Source of the DNA: Felis catus
Taxonomy: Eukaryota
Length of the DNA: 64,000 nt
Assembly (NCBI RefSeq): GCF_018350175.1
Contig: NC_058368.1
Coordinates: 85,066,001-85,130,000, forward strand
Direction: 5' to 3'
The translations under genes and the position numbers were made by a program. Position 1 is the stretch's first letter, and each line of letters begins with the position of its first letter. Positions 2,976 to 14,796 of the stretch are shown here, piece after piece. The notes beneath the pieces are model-generated. The model was not told where the DNA came from, searched no databases, and saw only the letters and a list, made by a program, of their open reading frames with translations.

Positions 2976-4907
2976 ACAACATGTCTGATAAATAAAGTAA
3001 TGGACAAAGATATTCACTGGACTTGAGAAAAAAGTGGATGAACTCATTGAGAACAGCACAGAGATAGAAAAAAAAAATATATATATATATATATAGGGTC
3101 TGGATAATGCAACAAGTGAAATAAAAAATACAGTAAAGGGAATCAGTAGTAGATTACCGAATGCAGAACAGGTCAGTGATGTGAAAAACAGAATAATGGA
3201 AATAAACCAAGCCTGACACCAAAGTAAATAATAATAACAATAACAATAATAATAATAATAACAATAAAAATAATAATAATGCAATAGGTTAAGAGAATTC
3301 TGTGATATCATTAAGCATAATACCACTCACACGATAGGGATCATAGAAGAAAAGAAAGAAATGGGGCAGAAAACTTATTTGAAGACATAATAGCTAGAAC
3401 TTTCCCTAATAATAAGAAGGAAACAGGCGTTAAGATCCAGGAAGCACAGTGAACCTCTAATAAGATGAACCAAAGGAGGTCCAAGTCAAGATACATAATA
3501 ATTAATATGACAAAAAGTAATTATGAAAAGAAAAATTTAAAAGCAGCAGTAGAAAAGAAAACAGTTACATACAAGCAGAACAACATAAGGTTATCATCTG
3601 GTTTTTGTTGTTTTGTTTTGTGTTTTTGTTTTTTGTTTTGTTTTGTTTTGTCTTTAGAAGATACTTAGCAGGACAGAAGGGAAAGTCATAATATACTTAA
3701 AATGTTAAAAAAATAAAACAAAACAAACAAACAAAAACCTAGAACAAAAATAGTCTACCAAGCAAGGTTATCATTCAGAATTGAGGGAGAAATAGGTTCC
3801 CAGACAAGCAAAAGTTAGCATTTCATCACCACTAAACCTGGTATTTAAGAAATGTAAATAAAATTGTTTAAATGGAACGAAAAGGCCATAACTAGATGTA
3901 ATAAACCATAAAAGTTAAAATTTTCAAGTTGAAGCAATCACATAATAAAAGTAGTAATCACGTAGGAAGATAGTATAAAGGTTAAAACATAAATAGTAAA
4001 ATCAATTATATATTTTAAAAAGGCAAAACACTCATAATTTTAAAAATGTGAAATACACACACACACACACACTACATGACACACAATATATAAAATGCAT
4101 GTAGAAGGGGTAGTAAAAATTTAGTGCTTATAAAATTTCTTCAAATTTAAGTGACCATGAACTACATAAATGACCATACACATAATATATCATATATGAA
4201 CCTGATGGTAACCACAGATCAAAAACTTACAATATATACAAAAAATACTAATAAAGAGAAAAGGATCCCAGATTAACACTAAAGAAAATCATCAAACAAC
4301 AAGGGAAGAGAAAAAAGAAGAAAGAAAGTCAAAAGATATAAACAAAAATAACAAAATGGCAATAAGTACATAACTACCAATAATTACCTTAAATGTAAGT
4401 AGACTAAATGATCAATAAAAAGACATAAGGTGACTAAATTGGTTAAAAAAATAGACTTATCTGTATACTGCCTACAAGAGATTTATTTGAGACATAAATC
4501 CACATACAGACTGAAATTTTAACAAATGGAAAAACATAACATGTAAATGTAAGCAAAAATATAGCTGAGGTGGCAATACTTATGTCAGAAAAAAATAAGC
4601 TTTAAAGGAAAACCTGTAACAACAGGAAAAGAAATTTATTATATAATGATAAAAAATATTAATTCAACAAGAGCATAAAAGATTGTAAATAACTATGAAC
4701 CTGACACAAGAACAAGAACAAACATAAAGCAGATATTAACAGAAGACAGGGAAATTAACTTTCCACCTACATCAATGCATAGATAATCCAGACAGAAAAT
4801 CAATAAGGAAAAAAAATGGTATTGAACAATACATTACATATGATAGACATAACATATATATAATATTACATCCCAAAACAACAGAATGCACATATTTTAT
4901 CTTATTT

Positions 4908-5205
4908 TGTTGGAGAAGTAAATAAAGTATGCCAAAGACGGCCAATGGGGCTAAAATAGATTCTGGTCTCTAGCTTAGAGACACCTCCTCTGGGTTCTTC
5001 TTCCTTTGTTTTCTGTGCATGTGAAAACCCCCACAGATATGGAAGCTGACAATGGTAAATTACCCTCCCCAATTGCATTCCGGGCTCAGACCTTTGGAGA
5101 AACAGTTTCCTCTGGGCCCACTGGTGTTAAATAAATCTCCAATCCACCAAGATCTCTGAGTGCCTCTTGGTTTTTCTGCCAGTGTTCCAGCCTGGTTCCC
5201 TAACA
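4908..5205 (+). mobile_element. ERV 5' LTR
   Basis: TGTTGG...CTAACA termini; AATAAA at 5130-5135; aligns ungapped to 12870-13167. Confidence 0.95.
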
Positions 5206-5209
5206 TACT

Positions 5210-5227
5210 TGGTTCCCAGACCAGGAA
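5210..5227 (+). promoter_or_regulatory. Primer binding site, tRNA-Glu
   Basis: TGGTTCCCAGACCAGGAA versus the tRNA-Glu 3'-end complement TGGTTCCCTGACCGGGAA (16/18), 4 nt after the LTR. Confidence 0.85.
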
Positions 5228-5555
5228 ACCCTACCACGCTGGCCTATTGTTGCCACCAGTTTGGGAAAACAGTGAGGCAGTGACAGAGTGAGGGATCGCA
5301 AGGGAGAAGGTGTGCCCTGACTGAATTTTGGTAGTCTCCTCAGTTGCCTGGGGCCAGCCCTGCTCCATTGTTCCCACCAAACTCAAAGACACCTGGTAGG
5401 TGAGGACCTGGGCCTGACATCAGAACTGGTAAGACCAGGGCCCCAAAGAAGTCAGACCCACCCAAAAGAGTAGAAGGGGGACCTGATCAATCCCTGGAGG
5501 CCTTAACAGGTCTCACAGGTAGAGAATTTTGCAGGAAGGAATGTAATAGACTTTG

Positions 5556-5558
<3 letters not shown>

Positions 5559-5595
<37 letters not shown>
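5559..5595. repeat. (TG)n microsatellite in ERV leader
   Basis: Direct sequence. Confidence 0.9.
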
Positions 5596-5598
<3 letters not shown>

Positions 5599-5910
5599 AA
5601 TGTGCAGCTTGGCCAGGCTTGCCAGTAGAGTTTGAGTTTGTGGCTCCAGGGACGGGCATGCTTAAGGTCCCCAAAAGTCTACAGAGTCTGAATGAGCTTT
5701 CCTGTGTCCTGGTGAGCCTATAAGGTCTAGGGTGGTATCGGATCAGATTCTGATCACAAGTCACAAAGCTGAGTCTGCTATGACCAAACCTCACCTAAAG
5801 TTTCCCTCAGTAATGTGACCAGAGGAGTATCTGATTGGTCCTCTCATTCGAGGGGGTAACCTCCCTTTGTCTTTCTTTGCAACACCGAACATGAGAAAAA
5901 AAAATTAATA

Positions 5911-7538
5911 ATGGGATCAAAACAGAGTAAGCCTATGATTTTAGAGATCATGCTCAAAATTTTAAAAAGGGATTTTCAGGTGATTACAGGGTGAAAATGA
6001 CACCGAGGAAGTTAAGGACCTTTTGTGAACTAGAATGGCCCATATTCAATGTAGGATGGCCATCAGAAGGGACAGTAGATGCTCAAATAGTGCAGCAGGT
6101 TTGGCTAGTAGTCACTGGGAACCCAGGCCACCCTGAACAATTTCCATACATCGACTCCTGGCTTGAAATTGCCTGAAACCCCCCACCTTGGTTGCTATTC
6201 ATCATTAGCAAACGGATCCAGGCAAATGTTTTAGCCACTTTATCCAGAGGCTCACCCAGGGAGCCAAAGAAATGGCCCACCGCTCCTTTAATATTTAAAG
6301 GAAACGTGGAGGATGATATTGTCTTTCCACCTCTTTATGACTCTCCAAGCTTCCTCCCCACTCTTCCTGAGCTTGAAACTCCTCCCCCATCTGTCTCTCC
6401 CCTGCAGCCACAGTTGCCAAGGCCTCAGTAGCCTTGGCAGTGGACACCACTGCAACCACCACTGCAGTCAGCACCACCTATCTTCCCGCCCCTCTTGAGC
6501 TGGAGAATCCTACCCCACAAGGGCCAGCAGCCAGACTGCACCCCAGATCCAGACCTCAAGCTGTCCAAAAACTTGTAAGGGAGACAAGAGAGCCTGAAAG
6601 ACAGAATGAAGACAGAAGAGTCCAGCCCAGCTGTTCCATGATGTATTATCAAACTTCCTCTACAACCGACCTCCTCAATTGGAAACACAACACTGAAAAG
6701 CCACAAACAGTGGTTGACTTGATGGAGTCCCTCTTCCAGACCCACTGACTGACTTGGGAAGATTGTCAATAGTTACTTCGTACTCTGTTTAATACAGAAG
6801 AAAGAAGAAGAAGGAGAGAAACGCAACAGTACCTAGATCATGCACCACTGGGGATTAATGACCCTGCTGTCTGGGCTCAAGCTGCCATGCCTGAAGAACA
6901 CCCAACATAGGATTATACCACAGAAGAAGGACAGGCCTCAAGACAATACCAGGAAGCCCTCCTCCAGGGAGTCCAAGCTGGAGCCAGAAAGCCCATGAAC
7001 ATGACTAAAATATCATCAGTCACACAGCACCCTGGGGAGTCTCCCAGAGACTACTATGAAAGATTATGTGAAGCATACTGTGTATACACCCCATTTGACC
7101 CCGAGGCACCAGAAAGTCAACAGATGGTAAAGACCTCTTTTGTGGCACAGGCTGCCCCAGATATCAGAAGAAAACTCCAGAAGTTGGAGGGCTATGCTGG
7201 AATGCATATCACTCAGCTGATAGAGGTCACCAGTAACGTTTTCATGAACAGAGAAGTCGCAGCCGAAAGAGAAGCTCAGAGAAGACTAAAAAAGAAGGCC
7301 ACCCTTCTGAACAGCAGCACTAAAAGAAACAGACGCTGCAAAGATGGGAAGACCCCAACCACAAAAATGGGGGAAGCCCAGAGCCCCCTTAGCAATGGAC
7401 CAATGTGCATACTGCAAAGAGAATGGACACTGGAAGAATGAATGTCTGAATCGGAAGGGGCCCTCAAAACCCAGCCGATATTGGAAGGAACTTTGAGGCA
7501 AGAACCTCATTGATCTGTTTGGGGTAAAATCAGACTGA
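5911..7538 (+). pseudogene. gag: ERV gag (MA-CA-NC), frameshifted and with stops
   Basis: MGSKQSKP myristoylation start; LRTFCELEWP..VGWPSEGT; DLLNWK; MHR-like QHPGESPRDYYERL; zinc knuckle CAYCKENGHWKNEC (7404-7445); TGA at 7536-7538 in frame with pro. Confidence 0.92.
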
Positions 7539-10500
7539 GGGGGAATGGGATCTTTCTCTCCTAACCCCCATGAGCCCACAATCAAAATGAAGGTAGGGGG
7601 ATGAACAATAATTTTCATGGTTGATACTTCCCCATTGTTACTCCATTGTTACTTCCCCAGTGGAACCCATAAGCCAAGAGATGGCAATCATACTTGGGGC
7701 TACTTGGGACAAGGGCAATGCAGCAGCCCTCTGTCAAGCTCGACAATTTGAACTTGGGGGTCACAATGTCCGGCATGAGTTCCTCTACTTACCTGACTTA
7801 CCGATTCCTCTTTTGGGCCAGGATCTGCTCTCCAAATTTGGGGCCTAGATAGCTTTTGAACCCACTGGACACACTAGCCTCCAATTAAACCCAAGACAGA
7901 AGGAAACCCTAGTCTTGGCGATTACCCTGCCAAGGGAAGAAGAATGGAGATTATTCTGCCCCCATGCCCTACCCTGTAGACCCTCAGAATTCAGGTTTAC
8001 ATTTCCCTTCATATGGGCTGCAGATAACCCACCTGGACTAGCATGGAGTCAGGCCCCCATCATTGTTGACCTGATCCCTGGAGCCCAACCTCATACACAA
8101 AGGCAGTACCCCCTTCCACTCAAGACTAGAATGGCTATACAAGAGCACCTGACCAAGCTCAGAGAAGCAGGTATTCTAATTGAGTGCCATTCAGCTTGGA
8201 ATACACCACTCTTGTCAGTCAAGAAGCCAGGAGGAGGATACAGACCACTACAGGATTTGAGGACCATTAACAAAGTGGCTGTTTCCTTACACCCAGTGGT
8301 TCCAAACCCGTATAGTCTCCTCAACCAAATACCGGGGTCAGCCAGATGGTTTACATGCCATGACCTAAATGATGTTTTCTTCTACCTCTACCTGGCTCCT
8401 CAAAGTCAACCATTGTTTGCCTTTGAATGGACTGAGCCCGTTACAGGGCGCCAGATGCAGCTTACCTGGACACGACTTCCCCAAGGTTTCAAGAACTCAC
8501 CCACTCTCTTTGAGGAAGCACTATCTGCAGACCTCACCAATTTTCCAAGGTAAACCACAGGGTGTGTCCTCCTCCAATATGTAGGTGACCTCCTCCTTGC
8601 CAGTGACAACCAAGAAGACTCTATGAAATGTACCAAGGCCCTCCTGCAGCAACTGACCTACTCAGGGTACTGGGCCTCTTGGAAAAAGGCACAAATTTGT
8701 CAGCAGCAGGTCTAATATTTAGGCTTCTTCCTCACAAAAGGAAAAAGAGAACTAGGACCGGAAAGGAAGATAGTTATCACCACACTGCCACAGCTCCAAA
8801 CAAAATAAGGCTTGCATGAATTTTTAAGGGCCACAGGGTTCTGTCGCATTAAGATTCCTGGATTCTCAGCAATAGCAAAGCCCATCTATGATCTGTTGGG
8901 AGGGCCAGATGAGGAGCCCCCTCGCATGGACTGAGTAGGCAAGGGCCGCTTTCACAGAAATAAAGTTGGCTCTGGGGTGAACCCCAGCCCTGAGTTTGCC
9001 TGACATAGAAAGACCTTTTAACCTCTTTGTACATGAAAAGGACAAAATAGCCCTTGGAGTGCTCCTTCAGAGCATGGGGCCAGTGGCCTACCTGTCAAAA
9101 AAACTTGATCCTGTGGCTGCAGGATGGCCACTATGCCTCAGAGTGCTGGCAGCCACAGTTCTGCTCATCAAGGAGGCAGACAAACTCGCACTGGGACAAA
9201 CACTTAATGTTAAGGTCCCACAAGTGGTCATGTCCCTCATGAGCACCCAAGGATATCGTTTCCTCTCCAATTCTCAGCTGACACAATACCAAGGCCTTCT
9301 CTATGAAAACCCAAGGGTCACTCTCGAAACAGTAAGAACACTAAACCTGGCCACTTCCCTTCCCGTGGAGGAGGGAAAACCCGACCATGACCATTCTGAA
9401 GAAGTGAACGAAGTCTATGCCAGCCTCCCAGACCTCCAAGACCAGGCTACCACAAGCCTGGAGATCACCCTGTTCAGTGATGGGAGCAGCTATTTACAAG
9501 AGGGCAGCCTAAGAGCAGGATATGCAGTAACCACAACCACTGAAGTTCTGGAAGCCAAGACCTTGCTGGAAGGATGGTGGGCACAATGGGCTGAACTGTA
9601 TGTCTTAACCCAAGCCCTCATCCTTAGCAAAGGTAAACGAGCTAACATCTACACTGATTTCCGGTATGGCTTCACTACTGTGCACGTGCACAGGGCTGTC
9701 TATAAAGAAAGAGACCTCCTTACTGCTGCAGGGAAAACTATCAAAAACAAGGAAGAAATACTAAAGCTTCTTGAGGCCGTATGGCTGCCAGACAAGGTAG
9801 CTATCCTACACTGTAAGGGATATCAGAAAGCAGACAACCCCATAACTCAAGGAAATTGCCTGGCTGACGAAACAGCCAATGCAGCTGCCTGTGGTGACCT
9901 AGGGGAAGCTCCTACCTACACTATGACTTTTGCGCCCCAGAGGGAAGCCTCCCTTCCCCTGTACACAAATGAAGAAAAAAGTTGGGCCTCGACAGAATGG
10001 AGCACACTAAGCAAAGAAGGATGGTGGGTCATGCCAAATGAGCACTTCTTTGTCCATTGTCTATGGGAAAACAACTAGTGAAGGAATATCACCGACTTAT
10101 GCACCTAGGGAAAACTCCACTGGAGGCCCTCCTCAAAAAGAACTATATCAGACAGCTGCTGGCATTATGCTGAGCTGTCAGTGAACAATGTGTAACGTGT
10201 GCCAAAAACAATGCTTGGTCTGCCCCACAGCCCCTGCCTGGCACGCAAAGGATGGGAGCCACCCCTTTTGAAGACTTAGAGGTGGACTTTACCCACATAC
10301 AACCAAATAAAGGGTTCAGGTACCTTCGTGTAATAATCTGCACATATTCAGGATGGGTCGAAGCATTCCCGACCAGAACAGAATGAAGTTGCAGGGTGGC
10401 CAAAACCTTTCTACGTGAGATTGTGCCTCAGTTTGGTCTACCCTTAACCATACACAGTGATAACAGACCTGAATTTGTGTTAGACATTATACAAATCCTG

Positions 10501-11090
10501 GCAAAATCCCTCAACATTACCTGGAAATTTCACACTGCTTACTGACCCCAGAACTCAGGGAAACTAGAGCAGATGAATCACACCCTCAAGGAAACCCTGG
10601 CTAAGTTCCACCAAGAGACTAATCCTGCATGGCAAGATTTACTACCACTGGCCCTCCTGCTTGCCAGATGCATGCCTGGGGCACTGGTATTCTCCCCTTT
10701 TGAGTTATTATATGGGCGACCCCCCCCCCATGTTTATGAAAACTTCCAGGAGACCTACACGAGATTGGAGACAAGAGAATAATAGAACAGATCCAGACTT
10801 TCAGGGAAGTCCTAAATAAGTTACAGAGATACACCATAGTGAAGGCCCCAATTTCCTTAGGGACCTCCATTCACCCTTTTCAGCCAAGAGACTCTGTGTG
10901 GGTCAAAGATTGGAAAATGGATGCTCTTAGACCATGGTGGACTGAGCCTCATACTGTTATTCTAACAACTTCTACAGCCCTTAATATTTCAGGTTTCACC
11001 CCATGGGTCCATCACTCCAGAGTTAAGAAGGCAAACTCAGAACCCACAACCTGTGAAGTGATCCAGATCCAGTTAACCCATTTAAAATGA
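7539..11090 (+). pseudogene. pol: ERV pro-pol (PR, RT, RNase H, IN), disabled
   Basis: FMVDT protease remnant; WNTPLLSVKK, QDLR, LPQGFKNSPTLF; YVGD (8578-8589) in place of YVDD; FSDGSS RNase H; VDFT, WVEAFP, SDN, EQMNHTLKETL integrase. Confidence 0.95.
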
Positions 11091-11358
11091 CCCTCAAAAA
11101 GGAAAGTATCCCCTGAGACCTTCAGCCCTCTTTCAGCCACACCCCAGAAGCTGGCTGGCCTGCATACAGCAGAAACCTGATGAATCAACATGTGAACCTA
11201 GCCCAGGAGTTTGGATGCAACTCTGCCAGCCCTTGTCCCTTACTGGTGCCATGGCCCTCATCTTACTTCTTAGTCTGTCAGCAGTGCTGATAGGGACTGC
11301 ACCAACAAGCTGGACATGGGACAAAAGATGCATGCTGACTCTCACACACCTCCTCTGG

Positions 11359-12834
11359 ATGGGAGGATTATTATTAAGTATTGCCTGTATATTATGATAA
11401 CCTCCTCACCCTCACAACTGCCTTTTACCCACTTTGCCCCCAGAATTGTTATATGACAATAAGGGGGTCAAAGGCATTCAGCGCCTTCACCTCCCTCCAC
11501 AAATATTGCTACAAGGGAAAAACACCCACTCTGTGTCAGTTACCCCATGCCCCAAGGGCTAAGTATTGGACCATAGAGATAACCCAAAATGTCAGGAACC
11601 CATGTCATAATAAGGGCCTCAAGAGAGGGAAGCAAGCTTGCTACACTTACCTTCCTCAATGGGGTATCTCGGATGGGGGAAGGGTGCAAGTCAGGGCCCT
11701 TCAAAAGGTTATGAAGGATACCCAGGACAGGGTAATAAAAGCCATAAAGGCAACCACTCCCCTTGCAGCCTGCCAAGGTTTGAACATTTCAGCCCTCAAT
11801 CAGATGCTTACCAACCCTACTCCAGCGTCAGGCCAACACTACTCTACAAGTCCTCCATAAAATAAAGAATCACACCCAAACCTGCTGGATGTACTTTACC
11901 CTCACCCAGAGGGCTTACTTAGCCACTACTATCCCTTTGACCTAAGAAGATCCTGAAAATCTCAAAACCAACACCTCTGTCTTAATTGGACCACTGGCCA
12001 TAGGGGTCTGTCTCATAAATTACAATAATCTAATCTGTACAGTCCCTGAAGGTATGAACGCTACCTCTCTATGTGGAAAAAATTAACCTTAAAGAGGAAT
12101 ACAACCCTGTGTTCAACCCCTGGGGTGTTCTATCTGTGTTCTAATTCTGCCTACCAATACTTAGAGGCCAACTGGACTTAGATATATTATTCTGTCTTCC
12201 TAACCCCAGAGATATCCATATACACTGAAGATCAGCTCCTAACAGACTTTAGCCCCAAGTCCCGGACTAAACAGGCAGTCCTGCTACCCGTTTTGATAGG
12301 AGCAGGAATTGTGACAGGAATAGGAACTGGAATAGGGGGCACAGTTTCATCCATAGAACTATACAATAGACTATCTCAAGAGCTAAATGAAGACATGGAA
12401 TGGGTGGCAGATTCTCTGTTAACCTTACAAAACCAAATAAACACTCTGGTGGCAGTGATCCTGCAAAATAAGGAAGCCCTTGACCTCCTCACTTCAGAAG
12501 GAGGGACTTGCATCTCTCTGGGGGAGGAATGTTGCTATTTGGTAAACCTGTCAGGAATAGTTATAACTAAGGTTAAGCAACTCAAAGAAAGAATTCAACA
12601 TAGACAACAGGAAAGTATCAATCAGTGGAAAGGATGGGCTCTCATGGATTGGGATCCTGGCTTCCTTCCCTGGCAGGGCCCCTCTTCTCCATAATTTTAC
12701 TTGTCTCCATTGGTCCCGGTATACTGAATGTCGTGGTACATTTTATTGAAAACACTGTTGTTCGCCAAACTATTGTACGTATCTTAGCCCTCCTAGAGTA
12801 TCAACCTGTAAAACTGAAAGGTGATGACTACTAA
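11359..12834 (+). pseudogene. env: ERV env, HERV-W/syncytin-1-like (RDR group), disabled
   Basis: Signal-like MGGLLLSIACIL; SDGGRVQV motif; CWMY; RTKQ cleavage remnant; fusion peptide IGAGIVTGIGTGIGG; ISD LQNKEALDLLT; CX6CC CISLGEECC; TM anchor; TAA at 12834. Confidence 0.93.
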
Positions 12835-12858
12835 AAGTTTTTTTTTTTAATAGTCATC

Positions 12859-12869
12859 AAAGGGGGAAA
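12859..12869 (+). promoter_or_regulatory. Polypurine tract
   Basis: AAAGGGGGAAA directly before the 3' LTR. Confidence 0.9.
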
Positions 12870-13167
12870 TGTTGGAGAAGTAAATAAAGTATGCCAAAGA
12901 TGGCTGACAGTGCTAAAACAAACTCTGGTCTCTAGCTTAGAGACACCTCCTCTGGGTTCTTCTTCCTTTTTTTGCTGTGCACGCAAAACCCCCCACAGAT
13001 ATGGAAGATGGTGACTATAAATTACCCTCCCTACTTGCATTCCAGGCTCAGACCTTTGGAGAAACAGTCTCCTCTGAGCCCGCCAGTGTTAAATATATCT
13101 CTAACCCACCAAGATCTCTGAGTGCCTCTTGGTTTCTCCCCCAGCATTCCAGCCTGGTTCCATAAAA
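12870..13167 (+). mobile_element. ERV 3' LTR
   Basis: Copy of the 5' LTR; terminal CA mutated to AA; AATAAA mutated to AATATA. Confidence 0.95.
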
Positions 13168-13171
13168 ATTT

Positions 13172-13385
13172 GATTTTTAAATTTTTATTTGTTTATTTTT
13201 GAGAGAGAAAGAATAGACAGAACATGAATGAAGGAGGGACAGAAAGAGGGAGAGAGAGAGATAGAGAATACCAAGCAGTCTCCATGCTGTCAGCACAGAG
13301 CCTGATCCAACCTTAAGAATGTGAGATCATGACCTGAGACAAATCAAGAGTTGGATGCTGGAACGACTGAGCCACCCAATAGCAT
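13172..13385 (-). mobile_element. Can-SINE whose T-tail (starting at about 4895) was split by the ERV
   Basis: SINE body followed by TSD copy cagaatgcacat at 13386. Confidence 0.88.
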
Positions 13386-13397
13386 CAGAATGCACAT

Positions 13398-13605
13398 TTT
13401 TTAAAATTGTTAATGTTTATTTATTTTGAAAGGAGATAAGGAGGAAGCAGGGGAGAGGCAAAGAGAGAGGGAGACAGAAACCCTAGCAGGCTTGGCACCA
13501 TCATCATGGAGCCCGATGTGGGGCTCTAACCCACAAACTGTGAGATCATGACCTGAACAGAGAATCAAGAGTCGGGAATATAACCAATGAGCCACTCAGG
13601 TGCCC
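13398..13605 (-). mobile_element. Can-SINE, tandem with the previous one
   Basis: SINE body ending ggtgccc, then cagaatgcacat at 13606. Confidence 0.9.
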
Positions 13606-14796
13606 CAGAATGCACATACTTTAAAAGTGCACATGGAACGTTATCCTGAATAAATCCATGGCCCATTTTAGGCCATATAACAAGTCATTTAATAAACTTA
13701 AGAAGATAGAAATCATATCATGAATCTTTTCTGACCATAACTGTGTAAAATTAGCAATCAATCTCAATGGGGAGAAATGAATAAAACACAACATATGAAG
13801 GCTAAGCAACAATACTACAGAACCAGTGGGTTAATGAAGAACTCAAAAAGAAAATTTAGATATATCTGGAGGCAAATGACAATGAAACAACAGTCCAAAA
13901 TCTTTGGGACACACTGAAAACAGTTCTAAGAGGGAAGGTTTAGTAATACTTAGTGCAAAAACAAAACAAAACAAACTAACAAACAAACAAAAACAAGAAA
14001 AAACCCTAGGAAAAATACATAAAAAGAAGTATAAAAAGAACAAATAAAGCCCAAAAGCAGAAACAAATGTCTTAAAGACCAAAGTTAAAAGAAGTATAGA
14101 AAAATTCAGTGACTAGAAGAGCTAGTTTTTTTGTAAAAACTGAAATTGATAAACTTTTAGCAAGACTCATGAAGGAAAAAAAAAAAGATAGAAATCCAAA
14201 AGTGCAATCAAAAAAGAAAGAGGAAAAGTTACAGATGGCATTAGGAGTGACAAAAAATTATAAAATAATATTATGAAGAAGTATATTCCAAAGAAAATTG
14301 TACAATTTAGAAGAAATAAAATCATAGAAACATACAATTTTCCAAAACTGAACCAGAAAGAAAATCTAAACAGACCAATCACTTGTATATAAGTTATATC
14401 AGTAATAATAATTTTATTTGTTTATTTATATTTTTGAAGTTTATTTATTTATTTTGAGAGAAAGAGAGAGCATGAGGAGAGAAATGTCAGAGACAGAAAG
14501 GGAGAGAGAGAGAATCCCAAGCAGGCTCCATCCATTCTCTCAGCACAGAGTTCTATGAATGACTTGAACTCATGAACAGTGAGATCATGACCTGAGCTGA
14601 AACTATTAGTTGGAGGCTTAACTGACTGTGCCACCCAGGTGCCCCAGTAATAATAATTTTAAAAATACAAGAAGAAGAAGAAGAAGAAGAAGAAGAAGAA
14701 GAGAAGAGGAGGAGGAGGAAGAGGATGATTAATAATAATCCAGGACTAGATGGATTCACAGGCATACTCTAGTGAAGTTTAAAAAGTGTTAATACT
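13606..14796 (+). mobile_element. LINE-1 copy A continuation (ORF2), containing a minus-strand Can-SINE at about 14415-14645
   Basis: aagtgcacatggaac continues the EN domain; SINE has TSD cagtaataataatttt. Confidence 0.85.

Follow-up and report, generated by a model that had tools for sequence, protein, structure and literature searches.

A class I provirus in the cat genome with an HERVERI-type gag-pro-pol backbone, a syncytin-1/ERV-W-type envelope ectodomain and a likely ERI-type cytoplasmic tail

The 64,000-nt stretch of Felis catus DNA analyzed here (hereafter, the window) contains a full-length class I endogenous retrovirus (ERV) provirus, spanning positions 4908-13167 (8,260 bp), that joins gag, pro and pol genes of the HERVERI supergroup, broadly taken and distinct from HERV-E proper, to an envelope (Env) whose surface (SU) subunit and transmembrane (TM) ectodomain are of the syncytin-1/ERV-W type. 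The provirus is complete in layout yet dead, with every gene broken. We consider it probable that it was left by an infectious env recombinant, likely with its own cytoplasmic tail. Template switching would have given an ERI-type ancestor the W-type ectodomain, and this ancestor likely retained its own tail because the tail would have to suit the matrix and protease of the backbone. The recombinant virus would then have entered the carnivore germ line repeatedly, generating a multicopy family, and the copy in the window would have integrated into the tail of a short interspersed element (SINE) lying within a LINE-1 (L1). The original prediction, an annotation made from the bare sequence, had correctly called a provirus here, but its interval (5210-12834) left out both long terminal repeats (LTRs; 4908-5205 and 12870-13167).

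The backbone is identified primarily by Gag, the linker between protease and reverse transcriptase (RT) and genome collinearity. The Gag matrix (MA) and capsid (CA) are ERI-type, and the MA motif NFKKGF is present in two consensus Gags of the accessible supplement of Vargiu 2016 (PMC4724089), HERVE and taxorder 10250 (HERVI), with HERVT showing a similar motif. By eye, the protease-RT linker and the RT motif QGFKNSPT agree with the published HERVE, HERV3, HERV1 and HERVI sequences and differ from HERVW and HERV9, and the W/9 motif QGFRDSPH occurs in none of the 120 RT matches listed. A scan of viral contigs yielding 19 retroviral genomes provided a linked ERI-type reference genome (L001), recognized by its ERI-type immunosuppressive domain (ISD). 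The window is collinear with L001 at the DNA level over 5929-6174 (66%) and 6693-11026 (58%), and up to 11058 by local alignment; three genomes resembling murine leukemia virus (MLV), RD114 and reticuloendotheliosis virus (REV) gave shorter matching blocks only. Downstream of the integrase end (~6150-6300), L001 itself apparently lacks the 5' part of env.

The primer-binding site (PBS; 5210-5227) is identical at 17 of 18 bases to the tRNA-Glu(CTC) PBS of supplement 6 of Vargiu 2016, which terms PBS usage "relatively unstable" (PMC4724089), and GAC-TGA-GGG at 7533-7541 separates nucleocapsid (NC) from protease in frame. PBS type and gag/pro junction are weak lineage markers; the junction in particular was discarded for group assignment because the HERV9 consensus, by eye, has a D-stop-G as well. 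The Glu PBS and the MA text quoted in the original prediction are confirmed, whereas the junction, although present, is not diagnostic of HERV-E; likewise, its HERV-E/ERI assignment of gag-pol holds for the supergroup but not for HERV-E itself, the RT being nearest to bat ERVs. Neither the W/9-type gag-pol and Trp/Arg PBS of the ERV-W group (judged partly by eye) nor the ERV-Fc gag-pol and Phe PBS of ERV-Fc1 were observed: the element combines a Glu PBS with ERI-type Gag, and its tail is unlike those of FC1 Envs.

An RT tree of 28 rows, comprising the window, 18 sequences chosen from the 120 matches and 9 of the 19 retroviral loci, with no W-type RT among them, groups the window with three relatives (support 100/99*), adjoining ERVs of Rhinolophus horseshoe bats (98/94*). 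The enclosing clade, which includes L001 and the orangutan ERV-E-like protein P0056 (HERV-E-like by eye), is unstarred (87/88), with the MLV group standing apart; a 55-row quick tree gave the same placement. Within this sampling, Pol clusters with ERV-E/3/1/I but is not nested in HERV-E, lying nearer to bat and beaver-cluster ERVs and showing 55% identity to P0056.

Judged from published descriptions, this pol lineage has probably been catalogued already as felid lineage I or III of Mata 2015 (gamma1 or gamma3 of Song). Lineage I (FcERV gamma1) is described with a size of 8.1-8.3 kb, LTRs of 294-298 bp and Kimura two-parameter (K2P) distances of 0.084-0.131, close to the 8,260 bp, 298 bp and 0.128 of the window element, and lineage III (FcERV gamma3) is likewise old and has a bat sister group (PMC4373062). 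That the entire ERI-plus-W architecture has also been described, in Repbase, Dfam or Song 2013, is a possibility we regard as doubtful. Felid lineages I and III are defined by pro-pol, with no env typing in the accessible text of Mata 2015 (PMC4373062), and no ERI-plus-W element was found in the accessible literature, which did not extend to Song 2013, Repbase or Dfam. The earlier suggestion of a poorly described carnivore ERV1 family is plausible.

The accessible supplement of Vargiu 2016 shows 12 human subgroups of ERI env, all lacking a W-type ISD (PMC4724089), and the ERI-type ISD, YQNRLALDYLL, does not occur in the window Env, in which both SU and TM ectodomain are W-type. Within the TM core, identity reaches 62% with the dog Env P0273 and 57% with the W-like P0123, as against 39-44% with named FC1 Envs, 41% with RD114/REV-like loci and 32% with L001, whose Env aligns at 33% over 89 residues in the ISD region. 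Syncytin-1, a placental protein, is the best PDB match for the TM piece (E 7e-48) and the only one for the SU piece (E 7e-8). The SU retains a decayed receptor-binding motif with 7 of 10 residues identical to syncytin-1, SDGG(G) being the receptor motif of the RDR interference group; the accessible texts of PMC8220723, PMC9967133 and PMC6407205 do not contain the SDGGG motif. Hogan and Johnson 2023 (PMC9967133) describe RDR-group Envs as users of ASCT2/ASCT1 receptors that have passed between lineages, and by analogy the ancestral recombinant would likely have entered cells via ASCT2. Syncytin-like co-option of this env was considered and rejected, given the stops and frameshifts in SU and TM.

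ERI likeness extends to 11058 in alignment with L001 and, judged by eye from HERVE and Harlequin passages, to ~11185; W likeness begins at ~11460. Two crossovers probably delimit the foreign segment, one at ~11.19-11.46 kb and the other at ~12.73 kb, and given the second, the W-type part would likely consist of ectodomain and membrane anchor only. When the 34 tail residues (12730-12834) were ranked against 103 Env ends, P0131 and P0206 came out on top, followed by P0233 and, in fourth place, L001 (z 5.5, a score reached by 1 of 200 shuffles); the W-type Envs P0279, P0123 and dog P0273 placed 24th, 49th and 70th. For the adjacent membrane anchor, L001 ranks 99th. These rankings suggest that the tail is likely ERI-type, and we grade its origin no higher than likely because the resemblance was first seen by eye and involves a single ERI reference. 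The W-type env and its swap between class I lineages had both been anticipated by the original prediction, whose breakpoint (11.1-11.35 kb) overlaps the interval given here; the swap likely concerns the ectodomain and membrane anchor rather than, as then implied, the whole env, a second crossover being likely. The separate RT and TM trees that it proposed place RT with ERI and Env as "not ERI", the TM donor being poorly resolved and the RT tree containing no W-type sequence.

The dog Env P0273 is named syncytin-1-like and is taken here, by inference, as belonging to the ERV-Fc1 lineage. With its own cluster excluded, named ERV-FC1 Envs account for three of the top five matches to its tail among 99 (z 13.8-16.9), and its ectodomain is 62% W-like versus 45-54% for FC1. 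P0273 and P0125 (dog and fox) thus pair a W-type ectodomain with an ERV-Fc-type tail, a combination that goes unmentioned in the accessible parts of Diehl 2016 and Halo 2019; the accessible literature, mostly without subscription papers, likewise yielded nothing on whether ERV-Fc1 retained its tail. P0233 groups with FC1 Envs and has a tail resembling that of the window element, and P0206 joins a W-like TM to a similar tail; both may reflect additional exchanges of the ectodomain in ERI-type elements.

Several observations weigh against an infectious ERI-type recombinant that kept its tail. Over 77 RT-core residues counted by hand, the window matches the published HERVE consensus at 48 positions and that of HERVW at 45, and the backbone assignment therefore leans on Gag, linker and collinearity over RT identity. 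The TM trees are poorly resolved: the window falls into a 13-row polytomy, unstarred, together with W-like and dog Envs, and the starred clade around it includes FC1 Envs as well. These trees back "not ERI" better than the identity of the donor. The predicted ASCT2 use draws on knowledge of the RDR group, and the receptor motif is decayed. No second copy linking pol to env emerged from scans of metagenome and viral contigs, and L001 shows no similarity 3' of 11060. Furthermore, the tail assignment comes from one ERI reference with 11 of 32 identities, it was spotted by eye before testing and would fail correction for 103 comparisons, and the DNA match of the 3' end to L001 is not significant (score reached by 23 of 300 shuffles).

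The single ERI reference with its 11 of 32 identities, and the shortness and variability that Hogan and Johnson 2023 (PMC9967133) note for Env tails, speak for an exchange of the whole env by a single crossover, with the ERI likeness of the tail arising by chance or convergence. We hold this to be rather unlikely: the tail places W-like Envs well below L001 while the adjoining anchor places L001 near the bottom, and the dog W-type Env repeats the backbone-type tail pattern with far stronger scores.

A reversed direction of transfer, in which the W-type ectodomain was long established in an ERI sub-lineage and was donated to carnivore ERV-Fc1 or primate ERV-W, appears unlikely. The TM is slightly nearer to the dog Env (62%; 66% for the relative P0122) than to W-like primate-type Envs (56-57%), the AU test does not reject a clade uniting the window family and the dog Env (p 0.42), and no env donor for ERV-Fc1 is identified in the accessible texts of Diehl 2016 (PMC4798954) and Halo 2019 (PMC6407205). 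However, that clade has no support in either TM tree, and L001 and the 12 human ERI subgroups shown carry non-W envs. An extended proposal is equally tentative: the W/RDR ectodomain would be a mobile cassette running from signal peptide to anchor, the backbone tail would always be kept, and the ERI lineage would be the source of the ERV-Fc1 env.

Relatives of the element were recovered with HMMER, which found 896 TM relatives (best 150 listed). Among the matches listed, seven TM proteins (P0122, P0127, P0128, P0131, P0139, P0167 and P0281) show 71-80% identity and four RT proteins 66-78%, pointing to a multicopy family with copies of similar age; the hyena TM protein P0133 stands at 62% and, with the SINE type of the flank, points to a carnivore, likely feliform, host. 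P0131 carries a W-type TM and the same tail in one protein. In P0131 and P0167 the env leader is fused directly to TM, with SU deleted, which suggests an amplified env-deleted subfamily. Pattern searches for TM returned 317 and 182 matches in metagenome contigs and 13 in viral contigs, none of them confirmed as a linked copy. Looking for full-length Envs by word index recovered 0 of 874 and 1 of 399, and ESM Atlas gave only matches under 0.8. Twenty indexed runs from two organisms contain 0.40-0.44 of the element's words, which would mean ~97% identity, and are a lead only. Although these scans recovered no other copy with pol and env linked, a one-off chimera formed after integration, when two ERVs underwent ectopic recombination or conversion, is very improbable, as is an assembly artefact, given the single matching LTR pair, the correct gene order and spacing, an Env whose signal, anchor and tail keep one register, and the recurrence of the same leader and TM in P0131 and P0167, with the tail also in P0131.

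The layout of the provirus (Table 1), with gamma-type domains in the order LTR-PBS-gag-pro-pol-env-polypurine tract-LTR, is that of a class I (gamma-like) element, with a 4-nt spacer between the CA end of the LTR and the PBS. Pfam matches above cut-off comprise Gag_MA (E 1e-15), Gag_p30, RVT_1, RNase H, rve, MLVIN_C and TLV_coat, with zf-CCHC and RVP marginally below it. Each of the seven stretches counted contains 1-3 stops, and the reading frame shifts repeatedly; the provirus no longer codes for any intact product and most likely has a neutral effect. The LTRs are identical at 259 of 293 aligned bases (K2P 0.128), corresponding to 5.3, 12.8 or 27.8 million years (My) under the three rates of Mata 2015 (PMC4373062), from which we infer integration ~5-28 My ago. 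No second copy was found within the window. A (GT)n microsatellite lies at ~5560-5597 in the proviral leader, 5' of gag.

Table 1. Coordinates of the provirus and its host flanks in the window.
Feature	Position	Strand	Remarks
Host flank: degraded endonuclease region of LINE-1 ORF2	4358..4893	+	E 2e-14 to L1 endonuclease structures
5' LTR	4908..5205	+	298 bp, TG...CA ends
PBS	5210..5227	+	tRNA-Glu(CTC) type, 17/18 bases; TGGTTCCCAGACCAGGAA
gag	5911..7538	+	MA, CA, one CCHC knuckle; stops and frameshifts; ERI-type; TGA end at 7536-7538
pro-pol	7539..11110	+	Protease, RT, RNase H and MLVIN_C-bearing integrase; ERI-type, broken; 3' boundary approximate
Interval with inferred 5' crossover	11185..11460	+	Covers env leader and signal peptide; candidate start codons (ATG) at 11180, 11215, 11251
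W/syncytin-1-type env	11460..12729	+	SU (receptor-binding motif decayed), TM ectodomain, ISD, CX6CC and anchor; stops and frameshifts
Env cytoplasmic tail	12730..12834	+	34 aa, YQPV motif, likely ERI-type
Polypurine tract	12859..12869	+	
3' LTR	12870..13167	+	298 bp
Host flank: two SINE copies	13168..13617	-	Bounded by repeated 12-mer

On the left flank (4358..4893), Pfam gave no match to the L1 region. Two tandem minus-strand SINEs, which we take to be carnivore elements of feliform type and which share a 12-bp target duplication, are delimited by copies of a 12-mer at 4882, 13386 and 13606; the provirus is inserted in the first of them, within its T-rich tail. Because the provirus sits in the tail of a SINE bounded by this 12-mer, the order of insertion was L1, then SINE, then provirus, and this nesting (4882-4907, 13168-13617) provides a relative date. 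The target-site duplication of the provirus, matching at 3 of 4 or 4 of 5 bases in a T-rich tract, carries no information. Pfam, PDB and local blastn gave no confirmation that the L1 continues, as presumed, in the right flank.

Env capture is well documented. "Env snatching" is called common by Vargiu 2016 (PMC4724089), ERV-Fc captured W-type env in carnivores and tarsier (Diehl 2016, PMC4798954), and env recombinants arise by co-packaging and template switching (Halo 2019, PMC6407205). What is new here is the likely ERI-type tail, and hence a probable second crossover. With env capture already common, TM-internal junctions known from feline leukemia virus (FeLV) D and the present copy dead, the gain is confined to paleovirology and classification: ERI becomes a further backbone among the lineages bearing the promiscuous Env of W/RDR type, and carnivores provide a second setting for it. 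A limit on env acquisition set by protease/R-peptide incompatibility was raised as speculation by Hogan and Johnson 2023 (PMC9967133), and tail retention, if true both here and in ERV-Fc1, would lend it fossil support. Should the cassette proposal with an ERI source for ERV-Fc1 env be true, such fossils would constitute a natural test of that compatibility limit.

Among known systems, the HERVERI supergroup (HERV-E, HERV3, HERV1 and HERVI; PMC4724089) shares with the window element the MA motif and QGFKNSPT, the Glu PBS as in HERV-E and, together with L001, the linker motifs REEEWRL and WAxDNPPGLA, a collinear gag-pol and likely the Env tail. It differs in its Env ectodomain and ISD, and the window RT, ~55% identical to that of P0056, is nearer to bat ERVs. 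In supplement 3 of Vargiu 2016, entries labelled herv4 have taxorders 10250 and 10410, which are HERVI and HERVIP in Table 4, an apparent labelling slip (PMC4724089). ERV-W/syncytin-1, of the RDR interference group, resembles the window element in the SU N-terminal region (SDGG decayed in the element), the TM ectodomain (57%), the ISD type, CX6CC and a similar anchor, whereas the gag, pol, PBS and tail of the element are not W-type and its env open reading frame (ORF) is broken. FeLV-D and RD-114 env recombinants also captured env, with 3' junctions inside TM, but on MLV-group backbones, recently and from other Env donors (Kawasaki and Nishigaki 2018, PMC5923473). Carnivore ERV-Fc1/CfERV-Fc1(a) likewise joins a class I backbone to a captured W-type env (PMC4798954, PMC6407205), with a backbone-type tail in dog P0273; unlike the window element, it has an ERV-Fc backbone and a Phe PBS and occurs in caniforms, its younger copies having ORFs.

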